From an uncultured Eubacteriales bacterium (GTDB taxonomy: Bacteria; Bacillota; Clostridia; Peptostreptococcales; Anaerovoracaceae), in NCBI GenBank assembly GCA_902774265.1, contig CACYHR010000007.1, forward strand, positions 6,141-70,140: a stretch of DNA of 64,000 bases, read 5' to 3'. The notes under the pieces are model-generated. The model saw only the letters and a program-made list of their open reading frames with translations, ran no database searches and was not told where the DNA came from. This document shows positions 2,629 to 43,293 of the stretch, one piece after another. How positions within the stretch are numbered: the first letter of the stretch is position 1; each line of letters opens with the position of its first letter. A program made the position numbers and the translations under genes.

Positions 2629-2770
2629 TGTTCAACCAGGAGCAAAGCTCCAACAAGCTCGCTTGATTGAAGCGAGCGACGCCGTCAACAGACACCGGGA
2701 GCTTCAGCTCCTGAGAGCATCAGTGGGGGATTGTTACCCACCACTGATGGTCGAAAATGGAACCCGCCGG
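2629..2770. repeat. Copy A of a conserved structured intergenic element (98-nt core + 25-nt insertion + 18-nt tail)
   Basis: 2629..2726 matches 22980..23077 at 97 of 98 positions by manual alignment, and 2752..2769 is identical to 23078..23095. The flanks are unrelated. 2727..2751 is a copy-specific insertion that completes the hairpin catcagtgg/ccactgatg. Confidence 0.85.
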
Positions 2771-4029
2771 TCCTTGTCTTTATCGGCGTCTTCGTCTCCG
2801 CCTGCGTTCCTGATATTCTTAAGGAACGAAATGACAGACTGTTTCTGTTTCTCTTCTTTGATCTGAGCTAACTCCTCATCTGTAGGAGTCATAACTCTTT
2901 CTATCTTGTTTTTAACTTCTTCAACAGAAGTGTCGTAAGCCTTGTAGACCTGGAATTGCTGATTCTGCGTCAGACTCGCAACATAATCCATCGCATACTC
3001 GCCTTTTATTTTTTGCTTTTCTATGTCCCATTCGCCCATATCGGCCAGCTGCATTTTTACAAGCTGCTGCATCTCAGCACTGGTCATATCTGTGGACATA
3101 TTGTTGCTGGCGGCATCGAGTATCTTCGAATACTTTGTCAGAAGCGCCGGCGATGTCATCAGTTTTCTGAGTATCGCATCCACAACTCTCTGCTGGTTTT
3201 CTACTCTGACTGCATCCTCGCTCCCGAAAGCTTTTCTCTCGCGGGCGAATGCCAGTGCTTCCTTACCGTTCATGTGATTCCATCCTTTTTTGACAGTCCA
3301 CCAGCTGCGCTTGACAGGAACGAATTCCTTAGGCGAGTATACATCTACTCCGCCAATTGCGTTGATTAGATCTACCACAGCGGTAAAATTCATTTTGACA
3401 TAATAATCCATATTTATGCCAAGCCAGTCCTCCACGGTGTTGAGGGTCTCATCGACTCCGTAAACACCTGTATGCGTCAGCTTGTCCATCTGCTGTGCCG
3501 TATGCAGCTTGATATATGTGTCCCTCGGGATAGAAGTCAGCAATATCCTGCGTGTCTGCGGACACACGGTAACTATCATATTGACATCACTGCGCTCCAT
3601 ATCCAGACCTTTTTCGCTCTCCCACTGATCGATCCCGGTAATATATATATTGAACGCTTTTTCGGTCAGATCTTTGCCCGCTGACCTCGATGTATCCCCC
3701 GATGTACTGATACGTGCAAATGCCGTAAAAGTTCCGGCAAGATAGTATGTCCCCAGACCGTAGATACCAACAAAAATTATCGCAAAAAGAATGCCGACTA
3801 TCCTGAGCCAGCGATGTTTACGCTTAAACAGGACACAGGTAATTATCATAAGTGATGCCATAACGACCAGCAGTGCCATCGTAAGTTCCTTCGGAAATGC
3901 GTTAACCACCGTCAGCATCACCATAAAAGCTATTGCCACCAGTGACATAAGAATCATTACAACAGCGTAACCGCCTGTCGGCAGCAGTGTCTTTTTCTTA
4001 TATGAACTGTTTTTATATTGTGTTGCCAT
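2734..4029 (-). CDS. LytR-CpsA-Psr (LCP) family glycopolymer-to-peptidoglycan ligase
   Basis: N-terminal TM region. Motifs RSDVNMIVTV, LTSIPRDTYIKL and VKMNFTAVVDLINAIGGVDV are typical of LCP domains. The last 12 codons and the stop lie inside repeat copy A. Confidence 0.9.
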   Translation of the reverse strand: MATQYKNSSYKKKTLLPTGGYAVVMILMSLVAIAFMVMLTVVNAFPKELTMALLVVMASLMIITCVLFKRKHRWLRIVGILFAIIFVGIYGLGTYYLAGTFTAFARISTSGDTSRSAGKDLTEKAFNIYITGIDQWESEKGLDMERSDVNMIVTVCPQTRRILLTSIPRDTYIKLHTAQQMDKLTHTGVYGVDETLNTVEDWLGINMDYYVKMNFTAVVDLINAIGGVDVYSPKEFVPVKRSWWTVKKGWNHMNGKEALAFARERKAFGSEDAVRVENQQRVVDAILRKLMTSPALLTKYSKILDAASNNMSTDMTSAEMQQLVKMQLADMGEWDIEKQKIKGEYAMDYVASLTQNQQFQVYKAYDTSVEEVKNKIERVMTPTDEELAQIKEEKQKQSVISFLKNIRNAGGDEDADKDKDRRVPFSTISGG

Positions 4030-21677: not shown

Positions 21678-22892
21678 TCAAATCACCGGATCCGGTTCTA
21701 CTTCTATATGTATATTTTCAAGGGCGCGGTGCAGGTATTCGACTGCCTCATCGAGAGTTTCTCCCTTTGCTATCACATGCCCTATTCTGTTTGGCCCTAC
21801 CCTGAATTTACGGACATGTCTGCCCGGTTCAAAGTCAAACTGAATATCACATATATGAGGATCAGGCTGATTATTATTCTGCTGACTCGCTATATTTCCA
21901 TCTTTATCCGACATCAGCAGCATGCTCGCATTAGGTATGAACCCGTTCTTTTCAGCGTCTGCTATGACCTTTTCAAAATCATATTTTTCTCCGATCGCAA
22001 CTCTGATTATGGCTTCGTAATAATCAAAGTCATAATATATCGAAACAAGCTCTGCCAGGCAGGTTGCGCCCGATCTTCCTCCGAGTTCCAGTACATATGT
22101 CATGCCGTTGCTCAGTATGAAGTCTGCATTTATGGCGCAGTTGTCGAGTTTCATTGCTTTTGCCGCCCTGCTGAGCTGATCCCTGGCATCGGCTGCTGTT
22201 TCAGGAGACAGATCGTATGGAGCAAAGTGCCCTATAGGGACGCCTGTATCGCCTTTGAACACATAGTCTCCATGCGGCAGTATAAACTCGAGTTTACCGT
22301 CCTGCACAAAAGCCTGCGCTCCGAACTCTTCACCTTCTATATATTCTTCGACTATAAAATAGTCGGATCTTGTATTTTCGAATACTGTTTTTCTGGCTTC
22401 ATCGAACTGCTCTGCCGAATCGACCTTGACTATGCCGCGGCTTCCGGATGAATCAACGGATTTGAACATTACCGGCATCTGCAGTTCCGAAATTGTCTTC
22501 GCATAGTTTTCTTCAGCAAACGGTATCTTGCGGAACCGCGCGCTTCTGACTCCGTTCTTTTCGTATGCTTCTTTCATCAGCAGTTTATCCGTTGCTATTT
22601 CCGCTGCTCTGAAAGACAGACCTCTGAGTCCCAGTTCATCACAGACCTTGCCTATAGTGATCACGGCAACATCTGTTCCGGCTGTAACTATACCGTCTAC
22701 TTTTTCTTTTTTTGCGATCTCAAGTATGCGCTTATAATCGGTCGTATCCTCATAATAGACCTTATCCGCAAATCTGAAGCCGGGATAGTTACCGCGTATG
22801 CTGGATACGACTGTGTAAATCCCCATTCTTTTCGCCGTTTTGATCAGCGGCACCTGATATGTGCCTGCTCCGAGTATCAGTATCTTTTTCAT
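21678..22892 (-). CDS. ATP-grasp domain ligase (paralog 1)
   Basis: Motifs MKKILILGAGTYQVPLIKTAKRMG, PVMFKSVDSSGSRGIVKV, IVEEYIEGEEF and VLELGGRSG. Same architecture as 26669..27901 and 28926..30029. Confidence 0.8.
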   Translation of the reverse strand: MKKILILGAGTYQVPLIKTAKRMGIYTVVSSIRGNYPGFRFADKVYYEDTTDYKRILEIAKKEKVDGIVTAGTDVAVITIGKVCDELGLRGLSFRAAEIATDKLLMKEAYEKNGVRSARFRKIPFAEENYAKTISELQMPVMFKSVDSSGSRGIVKVDSAEQFDEARKTVFENTRSDYFIVEEYIEGEEFGAQAFVQDGKLEFILPHGDYVFKGDTGVPIGHFAPYDLSPETAADARDQLSRAAKAMKLDNCAINADFILSNGMTYVLELGGRSGATCLAELVSIYYDFDYYEAIIRVAIGEKYDFEKVIADAEKNGFIPNASMLLMSDKDGNIASQQNNNQPDPHICDIQFDFEPGRHVRKFRVGPNRIGHVIAKGETLDEAVEYLHRALENIHIEVEPDPVI

Positions 22893-22979: not shown

Positions 22980-23131
22980 TGTTCAACCAGGAGCAAAGCT
23001 CCAACAAGCTCGCTTGATTGGAGCGAGCGACGCCGTCAACAGACACCGGGAGCTTCAGCTCCTGAGAGCATCAGTGGCGAAAATGGAACCCGCCGCCTAA
23101 GAGGCGGGGGACATCCGGTGTCTGTTATTTT
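22980..23131. repeat. Copy B of the conserved structured intergenic element, including a 12-bp long-range stem
   Basis: 22980..23077 and 23078..23095 match copy A (2629..2726 and 2752..2769). aacagacaccgg (23038..23049) is complementary to ccggtgtctgtt (23115..23126). Internal hairpins on the minus-strand reading: ggagc-tgaa-gctcc, gctcgct-ccaatca-agcgagc, ggagc-ttt-gctcc and cccgcc...ggcggg. Confidence 0.85.
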
Positions 23132-24057
23132 CTGCCTGTATACACATGCCGCACTACATATTGCGGATCATTTGTCATATTCTTGAACATCCGCCCCAGA
23201 TATTCACCTATGACCCCGAGAAACATCATTATCAGTCCCGAGAAGAAGCATATGCTTACCATCATTGAATACCAGCCTACCGCGCTTGTCGGTGCAAAAA
23301 GCTTTTTGAGTACTATGGCGATTGCACCGATTATTCCGAGTATTGAGAAGAATATACCTACCCTCTGCGCTATCCTCAGCGGTACTATGGAATAACCCAT
23401 TATATTGGACCATAGACTTATCAGTTTTTTCAGATTATAGCCCGATGAGCCGTAAGCTCTGTCATAGTGTTCCACCGGTACGCATGCTATATTCCTTGTA
23501 GTCCTGAGGAAGAGTCCCTGCAGGTGAGTGTAATGGCTCCTGTATTCTATTACGTAATCCCTTACGAATTTCCTTATTATCCAGAAGCTCGATGTCTTCA
23601 GTTCCTTAGGTTTGCCGATCAGTATCCTTACGGAGATATAATTGACCCAGCTGCCGAAATTTCTGAATATGCTGTGGTGCTTTTCCGGATAATATCCGTA
23701 TACAATGTCATAGCCTTTGTCGAATTCCTCGAACATCACCGGAAGCTGCGACGGATGAGTCTGCATATCATCATCCATTGCGATAAGTATTTCCCCTTCG
23801 GCATGATTCAGGCCGGCCATGACCGCGTTATGCTGACCGGCATTCTGTGCCAGTTCGATCACTTTGACATACGGATATTCATCGGCAAGTGCCCTTAATT
23901 CACATATCGTATCGCCTCCATCGGGCGAACTGTCATCTACCAGGACGAATTCGTATGGAGTCTTTCCCATCTCTTCCATTTTGGCAGAGGTCAGTTCCAC
24001 TACCTCACGGATAGTGTGTGCAGATTTATAGCAGGGAATTACTATTGAGTACAGCAT
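23125..24057 (-). CDS. GT2 polyprenyl-phosphate glycosyltransferase (GtrB/CsbB/ArnC type), copy a
   Basis: Motifs SIVIPCYKS, VLVDDSSPDG and IAMDDDMQ, plus a C-terminal two-TM hairpin ending GVIGEYLGRMF. The start overlaps the flippase stop by 16 nt. Confidence 0.85.
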   Translation of the reverse strand: MLYSIVIPCYKSAHTIREVVELTSAKMEEMGKTPYEFVLVDDSSPDGGDTICELRALADEYPYVKVIELAQNAGQHNAVMAGLNHAEGEILIAMDDDMQTHPSQLPVMFEEFDKGYDIVYGYYPEKHHSIFRNFGSWVNYISVRILIGKPKELKTSSFWIIRKFVRDYVIEYRSHYTHLQGLFLRTTRNIACVPVEHYDRAYGSSGYNLKKLISLWSNIMGYSIVPLRIAQRVGIFFSILGIIGAIAIVLKKLFAPTSAVGWYSMMVSICFFSGLIMMFLGVIGEYLGRMFKNMTNDPQYVVRHVYTGRK

Positions 24058-30114: not shown

Positions 30115-31365
30115 TTAATGCTGTCTCATTATCCTGTGCAGTACGCGCTCCGATGCGTGCCCGTCATCGAGAGGGCAGTATCTGCTGCAGAATTCCTCAT
30201 ATTTCTCATCCGGTGTCCAGTCCTCTGTATCTTTTACTGCCTTTATGAGATCAGCCTCGTTCTGAACGATCTCTCCCGGCAGTTCATCGAGCGAGATGTA
30301 AAATCCCCTCAGCTCATTTTTGTATTGCTCCAGATCGTACATGAAAAAGATCACAGGTTTTCTCAGTATGGAATAATCAAAGAAAACGCTGGAATAGTCT
30401 GTAATCAGAATATCCGCTGCAATATAAAGATCGTTGATGTCGCTGTAGCCCGAAACATCGCGCACAAAATCTCCGTATCTGTCGAAATCGAAGCTGTTCG
30501 CTACCAGGTAGTGCGCTCTGAAGAGTATCACATATTCATCGCCGAGCTCTTTTTTGAGCCTGTCAAAATCGACTTCGGTCTTATATGTGTAGCCCTCCCC
30601 GCTGGTGTGCTGATTATCTCTCCATGTCGGCGCGTAAAGTATGCATTTCCTGCCCTCGACACCCAGTTTCTGTCTCAGGACGATGCGTTCCTCTTCTGTT
30701 GTGAGCGATAGTCTGTCATTTCGCGGATAACCCTCTTCGATTATCTTATTCATCTGCCCGGTTCTGACCAGATTCCATGCACTTGCGAATTTCTCAGTCG
30801 TAAAAGGCGACGGCGAAAGAAGATACGAGAACTTCTTCGCGTCAGTCCTGTATTTGCTGTGTATCTCCGCCAGAGAATTCATGGAGTTATCGCTCTCTGT
30901 CAGATCGTAGCCCAGCTTTTTGAGAGGGGTTCCGTGCCAGCACTGGACGTATATCTGATCCCTGCGCGGATACTGATGATCCAGCATCCTGTAATTCGAG
31001 ATCCAGTACTTCGCTGTCCTAAGGGCTATATTGTCCTCTCTCGTCCTGAATTTTACTATCCGGGTCCTCTCATTCGCGAGGAAATCGTATTTTTCCGGCT
31101 CTTTAAAGCTCCAGACGAAGCTGAAATCTCTGTATTCGGGAGCTTTCATCATGTATTCATACATCGCCTTGGGTGAATCGCTGTAACCGCGGCCGGAAAA
31201 AGTCTGGAAATAGACAAGCCTGTCGTCGGTTTTGCCGAAGGGTCTGTCGGCGACCATTTTGGCATGATAAAACTTATCTCTTCCGGTTCTTGCAGCTATG
31301 CGGAATGTCCGGTTCTTTTTCGCCAGATCAAATATCTTTTTTTTGATTATGTATGCTAATCTCAT
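30115..31365 (-). CDS. CDP-glycerol glycerophosphotransferase family protein, TagB-like (short type)
   Basis: Motifs YSDSPKAMYEY, QCWHGTPLKKLGYD, LYAPTWRD and ITDYSSVFFDYSILRKPVIFFMYDLEQY. Paralog of 38902..40164. Confidence 0.85.
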   Translation of the reverse strand: MRLAYIIKKKIFDLAKKNRTFRIAARTGRDKFYHAKMVADRPFGKTDDRLVYFQTFSGRGYSDSPKAMYEYMMKAPEYRDFSFVWSFKEPEKYDFLANERTRIVKFRTREDNIALRTAKYWISNYRMLDHQYPRRDQIYVQCWHGTPLKKLGYDLTESDNSMNSLAEIHSKYRTDAKKFSYLLSPSPFTTEKFASAWNLVRTGQMNKIIEEGYPRNDRLSLTTEEERIVLRQKLGVEGRKCILYAPTWRDNQHTSGEGYTYKTEVDFDRLKKELGDEYVILFRAHYLVANSFDFDRYGDFVRDVSGYSDINDLYIAADILITDYSSVFFDYSILRKPVIFFMYDLEQYKNELRGFYISLDELPGEIVQNEADLIKAVKDTEDWTPDEKYEEFCSRYCPLDDGHASERVLHRIMRQH

Positions 31366-35900: not shown

Positions 35901-35917
35901 CCGGTGTCTGTTATTTT
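35901..35917. repeat. 17-nt fragment identical to the right end of repeat copy B
   Basis: ccggtgtctgttatttt is identical to 23115..23131. In both places the embedded tta is the stop codon (minus-strand TAA) of the upstream gene, in the same register. Confidence 0.6.
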
Positions 35918-38805
35918 GACAGTTCGAAGAATTCATTCACCCTGTTTTTTCCGTCCATCATGCCGTTATACTGTACTCTGGAATATTCATCTATCTTTTC
36001 GGTATATTGTGTTTCCTCATCCGAATCATAGATATTTCCGTCATTATCCTTGTAATCAATTGCATTCACGACCGGCAGTTCCGACCTCAAATCGAGAAGG
36101 TACTTGTCAAACCCGGTCAACGGCATTCCCAGTACGGATTTCATATACGGACTGATATAGTTAGCGCTTAACTCAAAATCCTGTTTCTCTTCGATGTCAT
36201 AATTAGCCCATATCATGAACGGAACCTGATGCGTCAGATCTGCCCATTCCAGATCGCTGATACCCTTATGGCTGTTTTTCATGTTTTCCAGGAATATTTC
36301 ATCCGATCTCGGCTGATGATCTCCGAAGAACACGATGACAGTCTCTTCATCCACATTGCTGAAATAGTCAATCAGATCCTCAAGAGCTTCATCGCTGTAC
36401 TTTATCAGATTGACGAACTGCAGCTCAGTCTCATCTCCCATGTCTGATTCATCTATAGTTATACCTTTATTCACGACACCTTGCTTAATACTATAGGCGC
36501 CATGATTCTGTATAGTCACATTGAACAGGAAGAACGGCGCATCCTTTTCGGATTTGCGGTATTTTTCATATTCTTCTTCAACTATATCATAATCATGCTC
36601 ATCAGACAGATAATCTCGTATATTTCTCGGTTCTTTAACATCGTCAATCGACATGTGTTTGCTGAATCCGAGCAGAGGATAAACTACATTTCTGTTGTAT
36701 GAATTGATCATTCCCGGATGGAAAGCAATTCCTCCGCCGTATCCGAGATCCGAAAGATAGTACGCAAGCGACGGTATCTCGGATCTGATTACGCTGCGGT
36801 AAGGAACCGACATGTACGGCAGAAATCTGACCGAAAAACCTGTAAGCGATTCAAATTCGGAGTTTGCGGTAGATCCTCCGTATATCGATGAATCCATCGT
36901 TCCCTTGATCGCATTATCCTTAATACTGCGGTAAAACGGCATCCAGTCCTTATTGGATCTTATTTCTCCGAGAACAGAAAGATCTGCAAAGGATTCGTTC
37001 ATTATAAAAATGATATTAGGCGTTTTGCCGCTCACCTCTTCGGCTTTGACTGCCTTGTCTGACGGATACTTCCGTGCAAGTTCCGTGATTTCATCAGGTG
37101 AATAGCCTTCCGGTTTGGATACTATGGAGTTCTTTACCGTTACGGCAAATGAAAGGGCGCATCCGTTTTCCGTATAGGAGTCTTTCGGCTTGAAGCCCGA
37201 TACCCTTATTTCATGAGCCGGCAGGATATCAGAAGTAAACACTACATAGCGGACGGTCATCGTCCATATCACAAGTATCACCAGCGGAACCAGTCTCTTC
37301 CTGAATTCCAGACCCTTATTCGGAGGCGGAGCCAGCGCCGCAGCGCAAAACATGCAGGTTACGAATACCGCTGTCAGAAATACCTTGCTGTATGTGAGCG
37401 AATATGTTCCTGCTACCTGCATTGCAGTTCCGGTCTGTGCGAAATCTGTTGCTATAAGAGGCGTATCCCTGAACTGCAGCAGAGCATAGTTTACCAGGCC
37501 GAATATCGAACCGGTAAGCGCAGTCAGCAGCGCAGTGAGACGGGTATTGTTGCTCACAGTAAATATGGCCCACCAGATCAGTCCTATTATTAACAGATTC
37601 AGTATGCCGAGCAAAGAAAACAGCTCTATGACGAATGAGCCCGTCTCGGTCTCCAGATATTTTTCTATTATGTAATACGTAACCAGCGGCGCAGCAGCAA
37701 AAATCACCAGTGCTGCTGTCCTCGCAGGCTTATACTTCGGATACTTCTTATCAAGCTCCTCAAACGGCAGCAGTACGAAAAAGATCGTAAGCAGCAGAAC
37801 AATGCCGATAAAAACCAGAGTCCCTGTCTCATATGACAGTTTCTGATATTCCATTTCAAAAACTTTATCCTGCTCTATTTCCCCATCCGTCTCAGCGGCA
37901 AACAAACCGCGCTTTGCTCTCATCAGCGGATCATTCAGCAGCACCAGACTTATCGGACCGTCACCGTCAACGTCTATACTCTCCAGCACGATAGTATATA
38001 CCTGTCCTTTGACGACAGGAGTTGATGCATTTTTGTATGATCTTTCACTTGTTGATACTATGCGGTTCTGATTTGCATCCTCTGAGCTCTGACCCAGCAC
38101 AAACTGGGTCTTTTTGTTTATATTGATCTGAGATGCATCCAGACTCGTGCTTGATATCCTCTTGCCGTTGCTGTCCTCCAGCGACACTCTAACCTTTCCT
38201 GTTGCTGAACTTGCCTTTGGATTGCGTATCCTGATAAAGATATTACCTATTGCTCCGGACTCTGCAACAAAGGACTGTCTCATAGTATGATTGCCTTTGA
38301 TCGGGTATTTGACCTTCTGAGTCAGCAATGTCTTATCAAACAGATTGATTTTTTCTCTGCTGCGAAGATTGTCTTTGTTTACAAACAGAAAAATCACTGA
38401 AGACAAAATCAGCAGTACGATCAGCACCTGTCTTATCAGCTTAATGCGCTGTTCTCCGGTACGCTTTCCGAAATCTCCGCGTTTCCATGCGACATTTGTT
38501 ATTGTGTCTTTTTCTGCAGATGATTCCTTTTGAGTTGTCACCGGAGTCTGCTTCCGGCCTGTCTTCTGACCTGTCTCCTTATCCCGGATCGTCTCCTGAC
38601 TTGCCTCAGGATTTGTTTCCGGACTCTCACTCCGGATTCTCTCCAGTACCTGTTCCAGCTCTTCCTGAAGCTTTTCCTCTGCAGGATCCGGCTGTTCTTC
38701 CTGCTTTGCTGTGTTCTGCGCTGCTTTATTCTTCGCCTTCTTCTGAAGTTCTTTATTTTGATTTTTATTCTGTGTTTTTTTCTTTTTCCTTTTTTTCTTA
38801 CTCAT
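35911..38805 (-). CDS. LtaS-family (sulfatase-fold) phosphoglycerol transferase with an extra ~330-aa N-terminal module
   Basis: C-terminal catalytic domain with IIFIMNESFADLS, GGSTANSEFESLTG and IVFFGDHQP. Five TM precede it. The N-terminus has a Lys/Glu-rich tail, one TM and a ~190-aa extracytoplasmic domain that is not part of canonical LtaS. Confidence 0.85.
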   Translation of the reverse strand: MSKKKRKKKKTQNKNQNKELQKKAKNKAAQNTAKQEEQPDPAEEKLQEELEQVLERIRSESPETNPEASQETIRDKETGQKTGRKQTPVTTQKESSAEKDTITNVAWKRGDFGKRTGEQRIKLIRQVLIVLLILSSVIFLFVNKDNLRSREKINLFDKTLLTQKVKYPIKGNHTMRQSFVAESGAIGNIFIRIRNPKASSATGKVRVSLEDSNGKRISSTSLDASQININKKTQFVLGQSSEDANQNRIVSTSERSYKNASTPVVKGQVYTIVLESIDVDGDGPISLVLLNDPLMRAKRGLFAAETDGEIEQDKVFEMEYQKLSYETGTLVFIGIVLLLTIFFVLLPFEELDKKYPKYKPARTAALVIFAAAPLVTYYIIEKYLETETGSFVIELFSLLGILNLLIIGLIWWAIFTVSNNTRLTALLTALTGSIFGLVNYALLQFRDTPLIATDFAQTGTAMQVAGTYSLTYSKVFLTAVFVTCMFCAAALAPPPNKGLEFRKRLVPLVILVIWTMTVRYVVFTSDILPAHEIRVSGFKPKDSYTENGCALSFAVTVKNSIVSKPEGYSPDEITELARKYPSDKAVKAEEVSGKTPNIIFIMNESFADLSVLGEIRSNKDWMPFYRSIKDNAIKGTMDSSIYGGSTANSEFESLTGFSVRFLPYMSVPYRSVIRSEIPSLAYYLSDLGYGGGIAFHPGMINSYNRNVVYPLLGFSKHMSIDDVKEPRNIRDYLSDEHDYDIVEEEYEKYRKSEKDAPFFLFNVTIQNHGAYSIKQGVVNKGITIDESDMGDETELQFVNLIKYSDEALEDLIDYFSNVDEETVIVFFGDHQPRSDEIFLENMKNSHKGISDLEWADLTHQVPFMIWANYDIEEKQDFELSANYISPYMKSVLGMPLTGFDKYLLDLRSELPVVNAIDYKDNDGNIYDSDEETQYTEKIDEYSRVQYNGMMDGKNRVNEFFELSK

Positions 38806-38901: not shown

Positions 38902-40164
38902 TCATCTGATAACGGCATGCACAGCTCTTTCTGATGCGTGTCCGTCGTCAAGATATGTAAATCTGTTATTAAATTCAAAAATCCGTTTCTGCCACTCATC
39001 ACTGCGGAACCATGTGTCAGATATTCTGATCAGCTCTGTCAGTTCCTCCTGATTCACCGCGACCGGACCCGGCAGTTCTTCAAGACCCAAATAAAGGCCT
39101 CTCAGGCTGTCTCTGTAGTATTCCAGATCATACATATAAAAGATTACCGGTCTTCTAAGCACGGAATAATCAAAGAAGACGCTCGAATAGTCTGTCATCA
39201 GCATGTCAGCTGCTATATACAGTTCGTTGATCTCCTGCCACCCGGATACATCTATAATAAATCCGCTGTATCGGTCCCGCTTTTCCTTATCCCGGATAAA
39301 ATAATGGGTTCTGAACAGTATCACATACTCGTTGCCGAGATCTTCTCTCAGTTTTTCCATATCGAGAGGCTCTCTGTAGCCATACTCTCCCACATCAGTC
39401 AGATTATCCTCCCTGTATGTAGGCGCATACAGTATAGCCTTCTTTCCCTCAGGAATCCCTATTCTCTCTCTGATCTCTTTTATCCGAGCCGGGCTGCAGT
39501 CCGCCAGAGAATCGTTTCTGGGATAGCCTGTCTCCAGTATCACATGCTCCAGGCCAAGCTCCTTCAGACCGAACGCGGAACTCAGTTTTTCACTGCAGTA
39601 TGCTGAAGGCGATATGAGGTGATCATATCTTCTGACATCGCTGAATATAGCCTTTTTCGTTTCTTCGGCTGATTCAGTTGCCTCAGTTGTAATATCAAGA
39701 CCCAGTTTTTTGAGCGGCGTGCCATGCCAGCACTGCGTATAGATCTGGCCTTTCCTTTTTCCGACTGCTGCAGGCAGTCTGGTGTTTGTGAACCAGTATC
39801 CCGCAGTTGCATATGTCCTGTAATAGTCCTCCGAGCCCCATCTTACCAGTTTTGTGCGGGGGTTATCCCCGACATACCTGAATTCGTCCATAACACTGTC
39901 CCTGAAACACCATACGAAGCTGTATGAGCTGTACTCATCACAGCCGAGAAGATATTCGTATATCGCCCGCGGGCTGTCAGTGTATTTGCGTCCTTTGAAA
40001 CACTCAAATACTATCAGTTTTTCATCTATCGGCATGCCGGAGAATTTATTATATCTGTGTTCTCTCTTGCGGCCGATCAGACTGTTTCCAAACCGTCCTA
40101 TCCATTTTCCCTGTTTTTCGGCATCTATAAGATATTTTTTAATGCTTTTTTTGAGCTGTCCCAT
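38902..40164 (-). CDS. CDP-glycerol glycerophosphotransferase family protein, TagB-like (short type)
   Basis: Motifs YTDSPRAIYEY, QCWHGTPLKKLGLD, LYAPTYRED and MTDYSSVFFDYSVLRRPVIFYMYDLEYY. Confidence 0.85.
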   Translation of the reverse strand: MGQLKKSIKKYLIDAEKQGKWIGRFGNSLIGRKREHRYNKFSGMPIDEKLIVFECFKGRKYTDSPRAIYEYLLGCDEYSSYSFVWCFRDSVMDEFRYVGDNPRTKLVRWGSEDYYRTYATAGYWFTNTRLPAAVGKRKGQIYTQCWHGTPLKKLGLDITTEATESAEETKKAIFSDVRRYDHLISPSAYCSEKLSSAFGLKELGLEHVILETGYPRNDSLADCSPARIKEIRERIGIPEGKKAILYAPTYREDNLTDVGEYGYREPLDMEKLREDLGNEYVILFRTHYFIRDKEKRDRYSGFIIDVSGWQEINELYIAADMLMTDYSSVFFDYSVLRRPVIFYMYDLEYYRDSLRGLYLGLEELPGPVAVNQEELTELIRISDTWFRSDEWQKRIFEFNNRFTYLDDGHASERAVHAVIR

Positions 40165-40167
40165 ATT

Positions 40168-43100
40168 TCACCGTCCGCAGCTCCGAAGGAATTCATATGT
40201 CCTCCGGCAGTTTTGCTTATCTCTGTATGCGTAGAAACGATCCAGCTTTCCGGCATATGCCGGCTGTATCCTGTATCCGTCGCTTATCACTCCCCCGACT
40301 GCTTCCAGCAGTTCATCCGTATCAGCAGCACATACCCCCGGGAGATCCTTCCTGAGATCTATATATGCTCCGTGTTCCTCCAGATATCTGTCCAGATCAA
40401 AGTGATAATAAATCACAGGCTTGTCCATGTAGAGCATATCCCAGCATACGCTTGAATAATCAGTGATCATCATGCTGCTTCGCATCATTATCTCATTCAG
40501 CGGCTCTGCACCAAACGGGACAAGCCGTATCCTGTCTGAGCTGTCAGCAGTGAAATCACTCAGATATCCTGCAAATTTCGGATGAAGATAGAATATCGCT
40601 GTAAGATCATTCTCTTCCAGCATTTCCGTGAACCTGCTGCTGCTTATAAGGCCCTGATAATGCCTGTAGTAATCGCTATTTCTGAATTCCTCATCTCCCG
40701 AATCCTCAAGCCACACCCTCCAGGTAGGCATTATAAGCAGAATTCGGTTCTGCCCGCTGCTCTTGTCTTCAAGCGCATCCCATCGTGTAAATCCGGTTAT
40801 CGGAACATTCTCCTCTTTGTAGCCGAAATTCTGTACTATAATATCTTTTTCGAGATCGGATGTCGCTGCAAAGTATTTCATCGGCCTCATTCCCTGACTG
40901 CCAAAAATATGATCCACTCTCTTCATTGCGGTTACCCCGTGCTGCAGGAAGAACACATCCTTTTTTTCTATCCTGCTGAATACAAGGCTCTGCTTTGTCC
41001 TCCAGGCATACAGATGCTGCACTGAATCTGTAGCTATATAAATGTTTGCCGCCATGGCATATACCATATGCCTTATGCTCATGAAAGGTATGACCGCCCG
41101 TCCGTAGCTGCTGACATATTGGTAATCTTCTGATTTCTTATCTATAACATAATAGTATTTATTTCTTTCGCTTTCCGGCAGACTCTTCCTGCAGTATTCA
41201 AAATAGCGCACTCCGTTGTCCTGTGCAGTCCTGCAGAATTTTTCATATATTATATGTATATCTTTTTTCCGGAGTTTTTTTCTGAGGACGAGGTATATAA
41301 GCATGGCTGCGATTTCTTTGATCCTTGTCATGCAGTTGTCGTAGCCGTTATCCTCTCTGCAGCACAGTTTCAGGCGGGCGCCGCTGCCTGTATACGGATA
41401 CAGTATCATTTTTTCGCCGAGGCGCGACTGCATATTTCCGAGTTTGAGCATGTATCTGATCCGGCGTTTTCTGACTCTGACTCTGAGCCTGAATTCCCTG
41501 CCGCCGGTCTCCGCCAGTACAAAACAATTCCATCTCAGCGGTACAAACTCAGCAGCGGAATAATCGACATCTGCGGTAACGGTGCAGCCCTCAGCACTGC
41601 CGGTGCAGACAGTATCAGCCTTAATTATCGTATTTTCGTCATTGTCCAGTGTAAAGATCACTGCTTTTATTTCATCTGCATCCCAGCCGCACATATCTAT
41701 TTTCACCCGGAAGCCATTTCTTCCGAATTTCAGTGAGTGCAGCATTCCGACATCAGAAGTATACGGTCTCTGTACCTGCAGATTCGGGAAAATGCGGTCA
41801 TTATCAAGCTTTTTAATTCTTTTCGCTGCTTTTTTTGATCCTGCAGCCGCAAGGATATCATCCTTCTTTGTGCGCGGTGGCGAGTCCGATGTAATGATAT
41901 AGTCAAAACGATCATTGAATTTATCATGCAGCATCTGCCCTATCCCGTCTTTGAACCATTTACGGTAGAGCAGTACGACAGAATCAGATATCTCCGCAAA
42001 CTGAGCTGTCGCTTCTATATCTGACAGATTTTTGAACCTCTCCGGCGAAATGACTCTGAGCTGTCTCCGGCTGTTCCTCGAATAATCCTCGATCTGCAGT
42101 TTTGATTCATCGCCCTCCAGAAAACATCTGAGCAGATTCTCCGTACAGTCCGGCGAATCATATTTTATGAGATCTCCGATCAGACTGTCTGAAGAGTAAT
42201 CATCGCAAAGGCTGCTGTCCGATGAAATGCAGCTGCAGAATTCCTCAACATCATATATCTGCCTGAACGGCAGATCTTTCACATCAAAATACATGCCTCG
42301 ATCCTTCATGTATTTTTCATAATCATACATAAACAGGACTATCGGCTTTGATGTAAGCGCATAATCAAAGAAAACGCTTGAATAATCCGTTATCAGTGCG
42401 TCAGTACAGTTCAGGAATTCATAATTGCTTATATCTGACGGAAACGCTCTGATATGATCATACTCATCAAATGATATACCGCCGGCAATTATAGGATGAA
42501 ATCCGACAAACATCAGCTGATCACTACGCATGCTGCGATCCAGCCTGCTGAAGATATTCCGTACCTCTTCAAAGTACGATTCATTTTCTATATCCCTGTT
42601 GCTTGTTCCTCTCCATGTCGGCATATAGGCATAGACCTTTTTATCGCTTATCCCCAGTCTGCTTCGAATGGCTTCGGCATTATCATGATCAAAGAAGACT
42701 TCATTACGCGGATAACCGCTCATCACTATGCGGCCGGTATACAATCTCTCAAGGTTATAGTCTCTCATAATCACCGATCTGGTGAATTCATTAGGGAACA
42801 TGATATGTGTAGCCTGCAGAAAATTATGCTGGACATTGTACATGGATTCGATGCCTTCCCGCATCTCCTTTCCCAGTGTCTTGAGAGGGGTCCCGTGCCA
42901 CGTCTGCAGGTACTTCTGTCCGGATCTGCGAACAAAAAAAGCAGGCAGCGAGGCATTGGATATGATATATTCTGCTGTTGCCAGTACTTTTGCGTATTCT
43001 TCGCTCCTTATATCGAGCAGCTCTGCTTTTATACCGGTATCGGCAGCCCGTCCGGCTTGTTCCTCTTTGTTGTTTACGGCAAAGAACATTCTGTATTTGC

Positions 43101-43293
43101 CCGGATACAGTCTTTCTATCTCTCCGGCACAAACCAAAGGAGAGTCACTTATGGTTTTACCATGAAATGACTCCAGCAGTATAGTATTCGGACAGATATC
43201 CGAGTGTTCGAGGTGATATCCGTAGCTGTATGTCAGATCCTCTGTCCTGTCGTGGATCTGTCTGATTGTTTTTTTAATCTTTTTTCTGATCAT
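40168..43293 (-). CDS. Fusion protein with two CDP-glycerol glycerophosphotransferase domains (TagB-like N-terminal half, TagF-like C-terminal half)
   Basis: N half: QTWHGTPLKTLGKE, YMPTWRG and ITDYSSVFFDYALTSKPIVLFMYDYEKY. C half: IYEKFCRTAQDNGVRYFEYC, FLQHGVTAMKRVD, LIMPTWRVW and ITDYSSVCWDMLYMDKPVIYYHFDLDRY. Confidence 0.85.
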   Translation of the reverse strand: MIRKKIKKTIRQIHDRTEDLTYSYGYHLEHSDICPNTILLESFHGKTISDSPLVCAGEIERLYPGKYRMFFAVNNKEEQAGRAADTGIKAELLDIRSEEYAKVLATAEYIISNASLPAFFVRRSGQKYLQTWHGTPLKTLGKEMREGIESMYNVQHNFLQATHIMFPNEFTRSVIMRDYNLERLYTGRIVMSGYPRNEVFFDHDNAEAIRSRLGISDKKVYAYMPTWRGTSNRDIENESYFEEVRNIFSRLDRSMRSDQLMFVGFHPIIAGGISFDEYDHIRAFPSDISNYEFLNCTDALITDYSSVFFDYALTSKPIVLFMYDYEKYMKDRGMYFDVKDLPFRQIYDVEEFCSCISSDSSLCDDYSSDSLIGDLIKYDSPDCTENLLRCFLEGDESKLQIEDYSRNSRRQLRVISPERFKNLSDIEATAQFAEISDSVVLLYRKWFKDGIGQMLHDKFNDRFDYIITSDSPPRTKKDDILAAAGSKKAAKRIKKLDNDRIFPNLQVQRPYTSDVGMLHSLKFGRNGFRVKIDMCGWDADEIKAVIFTLDNDENTIIKADTVCTGSAEGCTVTADVDYSAAEFVPLRWNCFVLAETGGREFRLRVRVRKRRIRYMLKLGNMQSRLGEKMILYPYTGSGARLKLCCREDNGYDNCMTRIKEIAAMLIYLVLRKKLRKKDIHIIYEKFCRTAQDNGVRYFEYCRKSLPESERNKYYYVIDKKSEDYQYVSSYGRAVIPFMSIRHMVYAMAANIYIATDSVQHLYAWRTKQSLVFSRIEKKDVFFLQHGVTAMKRVDHIFGSQGMRPMKYFAATSDLEKDIIVQNFGYKEENVPITGFTRWDALEDKSSGQNRILLIMPTWRVWLEDSGDEEFRNSDYYRHYQGLISSSRFTEMLEENDLTAIFYLHPKFAGYLSDFTADSSDRIRLVPFGAEPLNEIMMRSSMMITDYSSVCWDMLYMDKPVIYYHFDLDRYLEEHGAYIDLRKDLPGVCAADTDELLEAVGGVISDGYRIQPAYAGKLDRFYAYRDKQNCRRTYEFLRSCGR

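Follow-up and report, generated by a model that had tools for sequence, protein, structure and literature searches.

What is a strongly folding sequence doing twice, at near-identity, between the genes of cell-envelope polysaccharide loci? The question is raised by a stretch of 64,000 nucleotides (nt) from an uncultured Eubacteriales bacterium of the family Anaerovoracaceae (GenBank assembly GCA_902774265.1, contig CACYHR010000007.1, positions 6,141 to 70,140; the window), in which an earlier note had described a structured intergenic element of about 116 nt in two copies, here called A and B, explained either as a cis-acting RNA tuning the glycopolymer operons or as a small non-autonomous mobile repeat. 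Our analysis pointed to the second explanation. Both loci are very probably copies of a new family of interspersed repeats of about 172 nt, which are hairpin-rich, protein-free and non-autonomous, and not a regulator of the glycopolymer operons. The mobile repeat is favoured by the many copies found in many genomes, by an empty syntenic spacer in a related species and by contig breaks located at copies.

Alignment of the window copies showed that 2629-2726 and 22980-23077 are identical at 97 of 98 positions, and that the adjoining 18-nt block 23078-23095 equals 2752-2769, which in copy A is placed after a 25-nt hairpin-forming insert exclusive to that copy. The DNA flanking the two copies did not align and is unrelated, so the near-identical pair was confirmed as described. 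A 41-nt core occurred exactly twice in the window, against none expected in shuffles. The two copies are direct repeats with a spacing of 20,351 nt. The three hairpins proposed in the earlier note were present in both, and the sole substitution between the copies is indeed in a hairpin loop, at the last loop base of the middle hairpin P2 (2670 A, 23021 G). Copy A adjoins an LCP gene (2734-4029) and an Acyl_transf_3 gene (1307-2536), and copy B lies antisense to a GT2 gene (23125-24057) and an ATP-grasp ligase gene (21678-22892), all four genes being on the minus strand. As had been noted, a minus-strand stop codon precedes each copy, and the next minus-strand start is 94 nt (Acyl_transf_3) or 89 nt (ATP-grasp) away.

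The duplicated structured stretch is therefore real, but neither its length nor its purely intergenic position held, since the true unit measures about 172 nt and copy A lies partly in the LCP open reading frame (ORF). Copy B is complete save for the 25-nt apex of hairpin P5, which is retained in a same-species contig (L001). Copy A, relative to the full copy on two other same-species contigs (L098 and L099), carries a 47-nt deletion with its junction at 2769/2770; the missing nucleotides comprise half of P6, the 3' arm of the closing stem P3 and the LCP stop codon. The last 36 nt of copy A (2734-2769) are read as the 11 C-terminal codons and the stop codon of the LCP ORF. The LCP protein and the database protein P0001 are identical up to the start of this element-encoded tail, with which the DNA alignment agrees. 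The internal deletions in both copies fit decaying insertions, and both copies may already be decaying in this way. The deletions at 2769/2770 in copy A and 23077/23078 in copy B could represent strain polymorphism or assembly error.

Evidence for a mobile repeat came from the size and spread of the family. A scan of species-representative genomes with a pattern fixing the P2 stem alone returned at least 96 loci; 13 of them were chance matches in GC-rich taxa, and the rest were true copies with the flanking hairpins too. With a profile of 173 positions built from 20 full-length relatives (nhmmer), at least 89 copies bearing the left end were found in at least 16 metagenome-assembled genomes (MAGs), all from ruminant gut and belonging to two orders of Clostridia. 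Two groups were distinguished by their left ends: a Ruminococcus-type group (order Eubacteriales; Ruminococcus and relatives) with TTAAAC and a Peptostreptococcales group (Mogibacterium, Anaerovoracaceae and “Clostridiales”) with TTCAAC, to which the window belongs and in which the named relatives of the window LCP protein, from Mogibacterium, also fall. Full-length copies of the two groups share 86.5-90.3% identity, far above the expectation for non-coding DNA of different orders, which argues for horizontal spread; an identity of about 90% common to two orders makes the family a marker of gene flow.

Copies adjoin unrelated genes in both orientations, often at contig ends, and no recurrent neighbouring protein family was found among 424 flanking ORFs of the matches listed. 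The ENA contig k141_697539 (20,505 nt) of the same species starts and ends within the two window copies, which is typical assembler behaviour at a repeat. Ruminococcus RUG11231 contains at least 33 copies, and 28 of the 33 are cut by contig or locus ends, so that the family fragments rumen MAG assemblies; copies were also found on contigs of 100-387 kb. No match was obtained by blastn against plasmid and phage collections or by IMG/VR pattern scans with the left half and the right end, and a metagenome scan for the species-specific P3 variant found none. A literature search turned up neither a paper with the sequence of the P2 core nor a specific account of a repeat like this in Clostridia or Ruminococcus. 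As no Rfam model, phage or plasmid match or paper with the core was found, the family appears not to have been catalogued before. In two database proteins, P0121 and P0122, the gene calls run into copies and gain residues translated from the element, a C-terminal tail of 45 residues in one protein and an N-terminal extension of 50 in the other; the family contaminates protein databases with such spurious termini.

The ends of the element were sharp. Hardly any variation was seen in the left junction TT[A/C]AAC or in the right terminus TGTTAT(A), in contrast to the DNA outside them. At the left junction TT was invariant (81-82 of 82), position 3 was A or C and AAC was invariant, with variable bases upstream; this motif is either the left terminus itself or a constantly flanking target motif. 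The longest string common to both flanks had a mean length of 5.04 nt, close to that of mismatched pairs (4.69, range 4.41-5.08), so a target-site duplication is absent; the flanks could have at most a TT in common, and the tandem pairs L041 and L066 share a single TT at the junction. Long terminal inverted repeats were absent: when the right end is read as its reverse complement (TATAACAGAC), it has TnnAAC(A) alone in common with the left end, TT[A/C]AAC[A/C]AGG. In Ruminococcus RUG11231, L040:2606-2672 is a 66-nt perfect palindrome of two right ends, and at L012:7218-7299 with its downstream flank (minus strand) the right side is an inverted left end. Both resemble classical MITEs (miniature inverted-repeat transposable elements) in their perfect inverted ends but are singletons.

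The right end was repeatedly located at stop codons. In 14 of 22 abutting cases the stop codon of the opposite-strand gene was -4 to +47 nt from the right end, and in 7 of the 22 the overlap was exactly 4 nt; the overlapped TAA is the complement of the TTA in TGTTAT. The same arrangement was seen at both window copies, where the GT2 stop codon TAA reads as TTA on the + strand of copy B (23125-23127), and at a solo 17-nt right terminus described below. The family thus rewrites gene ends by supplying stop codons, here with an 11-residue tail on the LCP enzyme. Adjacent genes were antisense rather than sense to the + strand of the element in ratios of 48:24 at the left end and 22:9 at the right end, and the + strand was C-rich in 51 of the 73 loci with a clear skew, 10 more being near zero. 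An empty site was found in a related species whose LCP protein is 77% identical: the order PGI-GT4-LCP-Acyl_transf_3 is kept, with a 32-nt spacer and no element. In two Ruminococcus MAGs (L021 and L043) the DNA between orthologous genes was too diverged to align, and no empty site could be read from it.

Structural analysis showed that the unit is built in the order TT[A/C]AAC, P1, P2, GACGCCGTC, P3 enclosing P4-P5-P6, and then AT(A). P1 and P2 are 5' hairpins, and P3 is an 11-12-bp closing stem around the three hairpin modules P4, P5 and P6 (Table 1). The modules are individually lost or expanded, the copies ranging from 59 to 191 nt: shortened copies of 59-141 nt are without P5, without P4-P6 or without nearly everything between the ends, and some copies have extra hairpins, up to 191 nt. 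The internal-deletion derivatives L038, L045, L060 and L080 retained both termini. In six-frame translation the open frames differed between subfamilies, which indicates that the element is non-coding, and a database search with its translations returned solely host proteins with ORF calls that extend into a copy. In copy B, P6 as read on the minus (operon) strand is followed by UUCCAUUUU and scores as terminator-like, the terminator scan placing the minus-strand site at 23108-23089 with the tail TTCCATTTTC. The alignment showed that this U-run is absent from the Ruminococcus-type subfamily, and a conserved intrinsic terminator was rejected for that reason. Other short inserts were observed in P4 or P6 at L037:1496-1598, L011:1599-1675, L080:1229-1292 and L079:6926-8000, the insert being identical at two loci (L011 and L080) of one Anaerovoracaceae MAG. 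They suggest either that the family has additional hairpin modules or that a second small element has these hairpins as its target.

Table 1. Coordinates of the repeat copies and their parts in the window, with family consensus sequences
Feature	Position	Strand	Sequence or basis
Copy B	22982..23128	+	Profile positions 1-173, nhmmer E=1.6e-41; TTCAAC...TGTTAT; alignment with 31 relatives
Left junction motif	22982..22987	+	TTCAAC (TTAAAC in Ruminococcus-type subfamily)
Hairpin P1	22990..23002	+	GGAGC-AAA-GCTCC; RNAalifold
Hairpin P2	23008..23028	+	GCTCGCT-TGATTGG-AGCGAGC; RNAalifold
Linker between P2 and P3, consensus			GACGCCGTC
P3 5' arm	23038..23049	+	AACAGACACCGG, pairs with 23115-23126
P3 5' arm, family consensus			AACAGACGCCGG
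Hairpin P4	23049..23062	+	(G)GAGC-TTCA-GCTC(C); invariant save single mismatches; RNAalifold
P5 5'-arm remnant in copy B	23064..23077	+	Apex and 3' arm deleted (alignments)
Hairpin P5 of copy A	2718..2749	+	CATCAGTGGGGG-ATTGTTA-CCCACCACTGATG
P5, family consensus			Hairpin of ~12 bp
Spacer between P5 and P6, consensus			GAAAATGGAA
Hairpin P6	23089..23110	+	CCCGCCGCC-TAAGA-GGCGGGGG
Linker between P6 and P3 3' arm, consensus			ACAT
P3 3' arm and terminal AT	23115..23128	+	CCGGTGTCTGTT (arm), then AT
P3 3' arm, family consensus			CCGGCGTCTGTT
Right terminus, consensus			AT(A)
Copy A	2631..2769	+	Profile positions 1-139, nhmmer; P5 intact, right end missing
Element-encoded LCP tail	2734..2769	-	RRVPFSTISGG and stop, in place of native KDKEK and stop
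Solo right terminus	35901..35917	+	17 nt (CCGGTGTCTGTTATTTT), exact match, 0.01 expected by chance

On either strand the window copies had a much stronger fold than shuffled controls, with z between -3.4 and -6.4. The fold was examined by counting pairs in 32 copies, with partners slid by one to three columns and shuffles as controls. Cells were paired in 94.8% of cases, compared with 39-51% for slid partners, and changes on both sides were found in 12 pairs, compared with 5.7 in shuffles. P3 had compensatory changes in 6 of 11 pairs with 98% of its cells paired, and P5 in 6 of 9 outer pairs, for example CATCAGT/ACTGATG versus CGTCGGT/ACCGACG. The most divergent member, L029, had an entirely different yet fully paired P3 (AACACGCGCAG/CTGCGCGTGTT). 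P1 was paired in 97.5% of cells with no compensatory change, and P1, P4 and P6 were nearly invariant; the invariance of P2 is uninformative because its stem was fixed by the search pattern. RNAalifold, without a structure supplied, recovered P1-P4 and parts of P5 and P6. Covariation, which had been suggested as a check of the proposed helices, thus supported P3 and P5, whose pairing has been conserved through compensatory changes, and the closing stem of 12 bp first noticed in copy B (23038-23049/23115-23126) is a real, conserved feature of the family. Read on the + strand, the helices contained 26 G.T and 12 A.C cells overall and 8 and none, respectively, in P3, with further G.T in the short copies. 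This excess of G.T over A.C intermediates indicates that the fold was selected on the + strand, antisense to the operon in the window. The proposed search of Rfam gave no match at the gathering score for the whole window and 13 related loci, and with E up to 10 on either strand the window copy and a full-length relative gave chance-level hits only (15 bits, against cut-offs of 45-90).

Given such a repeat, the element would be mobilised in trans, the gene for the responsible enzyme lying elsewhere in the genome. A candidate route is the single-strand, HUH-type “peel-and-paste” reaction of the kind used by the palindrome-associated transposable elements (PATEs) of the IS200/IS605 group, which is suggested because of the asymmetric ends, the subterminal hairpins, the conserved left motif, the similar right pentamer, the lack of duplication and the strand-specific pairing. 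We regard this route as tentative and on balance doubtful. The window copies would have landed at the LCP and GT2 stop codons and would then be co-transcribed with the operons as the reverse complement, adding very stable hairpins to the messages and, in copy B, also the terminator-like P6 and U-run directly after the GT2 stop. Such hairpins, which the family puts between genes of cell-envelope loci, could have the side effect of dampening read-through or of changing how stable the mRNA is. The other subfamily, however, has no U-run, and the related species manages without the element; any influence on the operon would be a by-product.

Several results weigh against a mobile repeat. No transposase domain was found among 20 ORFs of the window, and the translated-element search linked no transposase to the family. 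The folding strand is antisense to neighbouring genes by 2:1 and mostly C-rich, the reverse of the IS608 rule, which weakens the proposed HUH route as well. A metagenome pattern scan found no within-species empty GT2/ATP-grasp site, and the exact boundaries and the act of insertion were inferred, not seen. The fixed P2 stem of the scan pattern biased the sample to close relatives, and errors in MAG binning could inflate the copy counts per genome. Against the HUH route in particular, neither about 600 kb of flanks nor the window nor the translated-element search yielded a TnpA/TnpB partner whose ends match.

The comparison with known systems placed the family nearest to the PATEs of IS200/IS605, which are gene-less, moved in trans, inserted without duplication beside a fixed motif and often encode omega-RNAs; they are recognized by a transposon-adjacent motif (TAM) of 4-5 nt beside the left end and a related transposon-encoded motif (TEM) ending the right end (PMC10055086). 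Like them, the family is ORF-less, about 100-200 nt long, present in many copies and presumably moved in trans. Its ends are unlike each other and have subterminal hairpins (P1 and P2 on the left, P6 and the P3 arm on the right); its pairing is maintained on one strand and it makes no duplication. The short motif constant at the left junction (TT[A/C]AA(C)), which may be flank or element, and the similar right-terminal pentamer (TTAT(A)) could correspond to a TAM and a TEM. The differences are that no TnpA/TnpB partner with matching ends accompanies it, that its left hairpin starts 2-3 nt from the junction, that no omega-RNA-type match was found in Rfam, and that by GC skew and neighbouring genes its folding strand is opposite to the IS608 rule of the top strand on the lagging template. 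Membership among the PATEs is thus a lead, not a finding. With asymmetric ends, no duplication and one-strand covariation, and with an orientation that is still unexplained, the family is a candidate for single-strand (HUH-type) mobilisation in Clostridia.

Classical MITEs such as Correia/NEMIS, RUP and ERIC/IRU are alike in being 100-170 nt long, ORF-less and multi-copy, with unrelated flanks and strong folding in transcripts. They have side effects on termination, processing and mRNA stability and can supply stop codons or protein tails. Unlike the present family, they have clear inverted repeats at their ends and duplicate the target, TA in the case of Correia and RUP. In the way it works, the family resembles the structured interspersed repeats known from other bacteria, namely BOX, REP/BIME, Correia/RUP/ERIC and the PATEs of IS200/IS605. 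The family lacked the tested defining features of classical MITEs, REP elements and attC sites and showed some of those of PATEs.

A repeat maintained by the host, of the REP/BIME/REPIN or BOX type and multiplied by a single domesticated RAYT-like enzyme, is an unlikely alternative. Its palindromes, once transcribed at gene ends, would stabilise the upstream mRNA or act as weak terminators. REP/BIME/REPIN elements, which depend on RAYT, a Y1 HUH enzyme, are likewise extragenic, often placed after stop codons and built of hairpins with compensatory mutations, and a single-strand-acting enzyme is plausible for both. The position of our copies near gene 3' ends (the 14 of 22 cases given above), their modular hairpins with compensatory changes, P6 with its U-run, terminator-like on the gene-sense strand in the majority orientation, and the failure to see a transposase nearby all fit this alternative. 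REP units, however, measure 20-40 nt, have a conserved tetranucleotide head, form inverted doublets, and are species-specific and vertically inherited, whereas the family has a 172-nt unit with six different helices and no REP-like 20-40-nt unit with a GTAG head, and its identity of about 90% across two orders argues for horizontal spread and not for a vertically inherited, host-specific repeat. The U-run is missing in the Ruminococcus-type subfamily, the wobble pairs favour the strand antisense to most neighbours, and one third of the copies have the other orientation. The BOX elements of Streptococcus pneumoniae, of the form boxA-boxB(n)-boxC, occur in more than 100 intergenic copies in one species group. 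They share with our family stable modular hairpins of variable number, the lack of a protein and co-transcription with neighbours, but their sequence is unrelated, and the family crosses orders and has sharp asymmetric termini and a long-range closing stem.

The covarying fold of one strand also admits a functional P3-P6 scaffold. In a general form, a novel ORF-less, single-strand-mobilised element, spreading horizontally across orders of Clostridia in the rumen and preferentially replacing host stop codons, would carry P3-P6 as a functional RNA or single-stranded DNA scaffold, for example an omega-RNA-like guide serving a transposon nuclease in trans; we hold this to be quite unlikely. The specific form, in which the element is of IS200/IS605 or IS607 type and its right 115 nt (P3-P6) serve a TnpB- or IscB-like nuclease, itself encoded elsewhere, in trans as an omega-RNA-like scaffold, the flank acting as the guide, is very unlikely. 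It draws on the wobble-tolerant, covarying fold that abuts the element boundary, and the size of P3-P6 lies within the range of omega-RNA scaffolds. The left pentamer (TTAAA/TTCAA) is similar to the right-terminal TTATA, like the TAM and TEM of ISGst elements, and PATEs “often encode omega-RNAs” (PMC10055086). Rfam, as said, gave no match on either strand with E up to 10, no TnpB, IscB or TnpA gene was seen near any listed copy, and a scan for sigma70-like promoters found none around copy B and two predicted sites around copy A, both outside the element. Since the folding strand is antisense to its neighbours in two thirds of the copies, read-through cannot supply the + strand RNA there.

The cis-acting RNA of the earlier note, a leader or intercistronic RNA on the minus strand acting by antitermination, attenuation (GCUCCAA/UUGGAGC) or processing of glycopolymer operons, is highly improbable. 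It gained some ground from the strong folding of the minus strand (-67.7 kcal/mol, z = -3.4 in copy B; z = -5.4 in copy A), from the position of both copies between same-strand genes of cell-envelope polysaccharide loci, and from the alternative helix GCUCCAA/UUGGAGC, which was compensated in two relatives. This helix amounts to weak evidence: compensation was found in 2 of 9 distinct variant sequences (L029 and L097) and was lacking in the other 7, in which the changes are single transitions on the loop side, the less constrained partner. Leaders of the EAR/processive-antitermination or riboswitch kind resemble the element in being structured RNA-like sequences within long exopolysaccharide or cell-wall operons, but the family is multi-copy, adjoins unrelated genes in both orientations without being bound to a gene class, is absent from the orthologous, syntenic operon of the related species and has no Rfam match. 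The G.T intermediates favour the opposite strand, and the closing stem has gone from copy A, together with half of P6. The sequence, duplicated between genes of polysaccharide operons and folding strongly, thus mimics a riboswitch or antiterminator yet is very probably a genome-wide repeat, and a false lead is removed.

Recombination sites, either attL/attR of a 20-kb island or an integron attC-like palindrome closed by P3, are extremely improbable and were both rejected: the two direct copies 20,351 nt apart, the AAC/GTT nearly invariant at the base of P3, the variable-length centre, the strand-specific fold and the position 3' of ORFs recall them, but dozens of copies lie elsewhere, the ORFs tested within and near the 20-kb segment included neither an integrase nor a recombinase, and neither loss of that segment with a single repeat left nor intI with cassette arrays was seen, while for attC the pairing runs only inward from AAC/GTT without the outward extension that the R''/R' boxes of attC, RYYYAAC and GTTRRRY, need, the stem is continuous over 11-12 bp with no central bulge or spacer, the copies stand kilobases apart among ordinary genes rather than in cassette arrays, and the conserved 56-nt P1-P2 arm has no attC counterpart.

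Three further observations concern the window itself. The solo right terminus overlaps the minus-strand stop codon of a sulfatase-domain ORF (35911-38805; Pfam), its TTA being that stop codon, and stands between the arms of an inverted repeat of 7 nt (AAAATAA...TTATTTT). This terminus is probably what is left of a third copy. When the window proteins were looked up in order to view copy B and this remnant in other assemblies, either no exact products were found or the contigs ended early. For the GT2 gene of the same species in other samples (L100-L103), three short contigs end at one point, about 186 nt before the GT2 stop, and L101 has a shorter GT2 (236 amino acids) followed by different DNA; the locus downstream of that point therefore differs between strains. 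Direct repeats of 44 nt with 64-86% identity were observed at 30373-30416, 39166-39209, 40435-40478 and 42361-42404, in the minus-strand ORFs 30115-31365, 38902-40164 and 40168-43293 (twice in the last), and presumably mark a stretch conserved among paralogous enzymes that belong to the glycopolymer locus.

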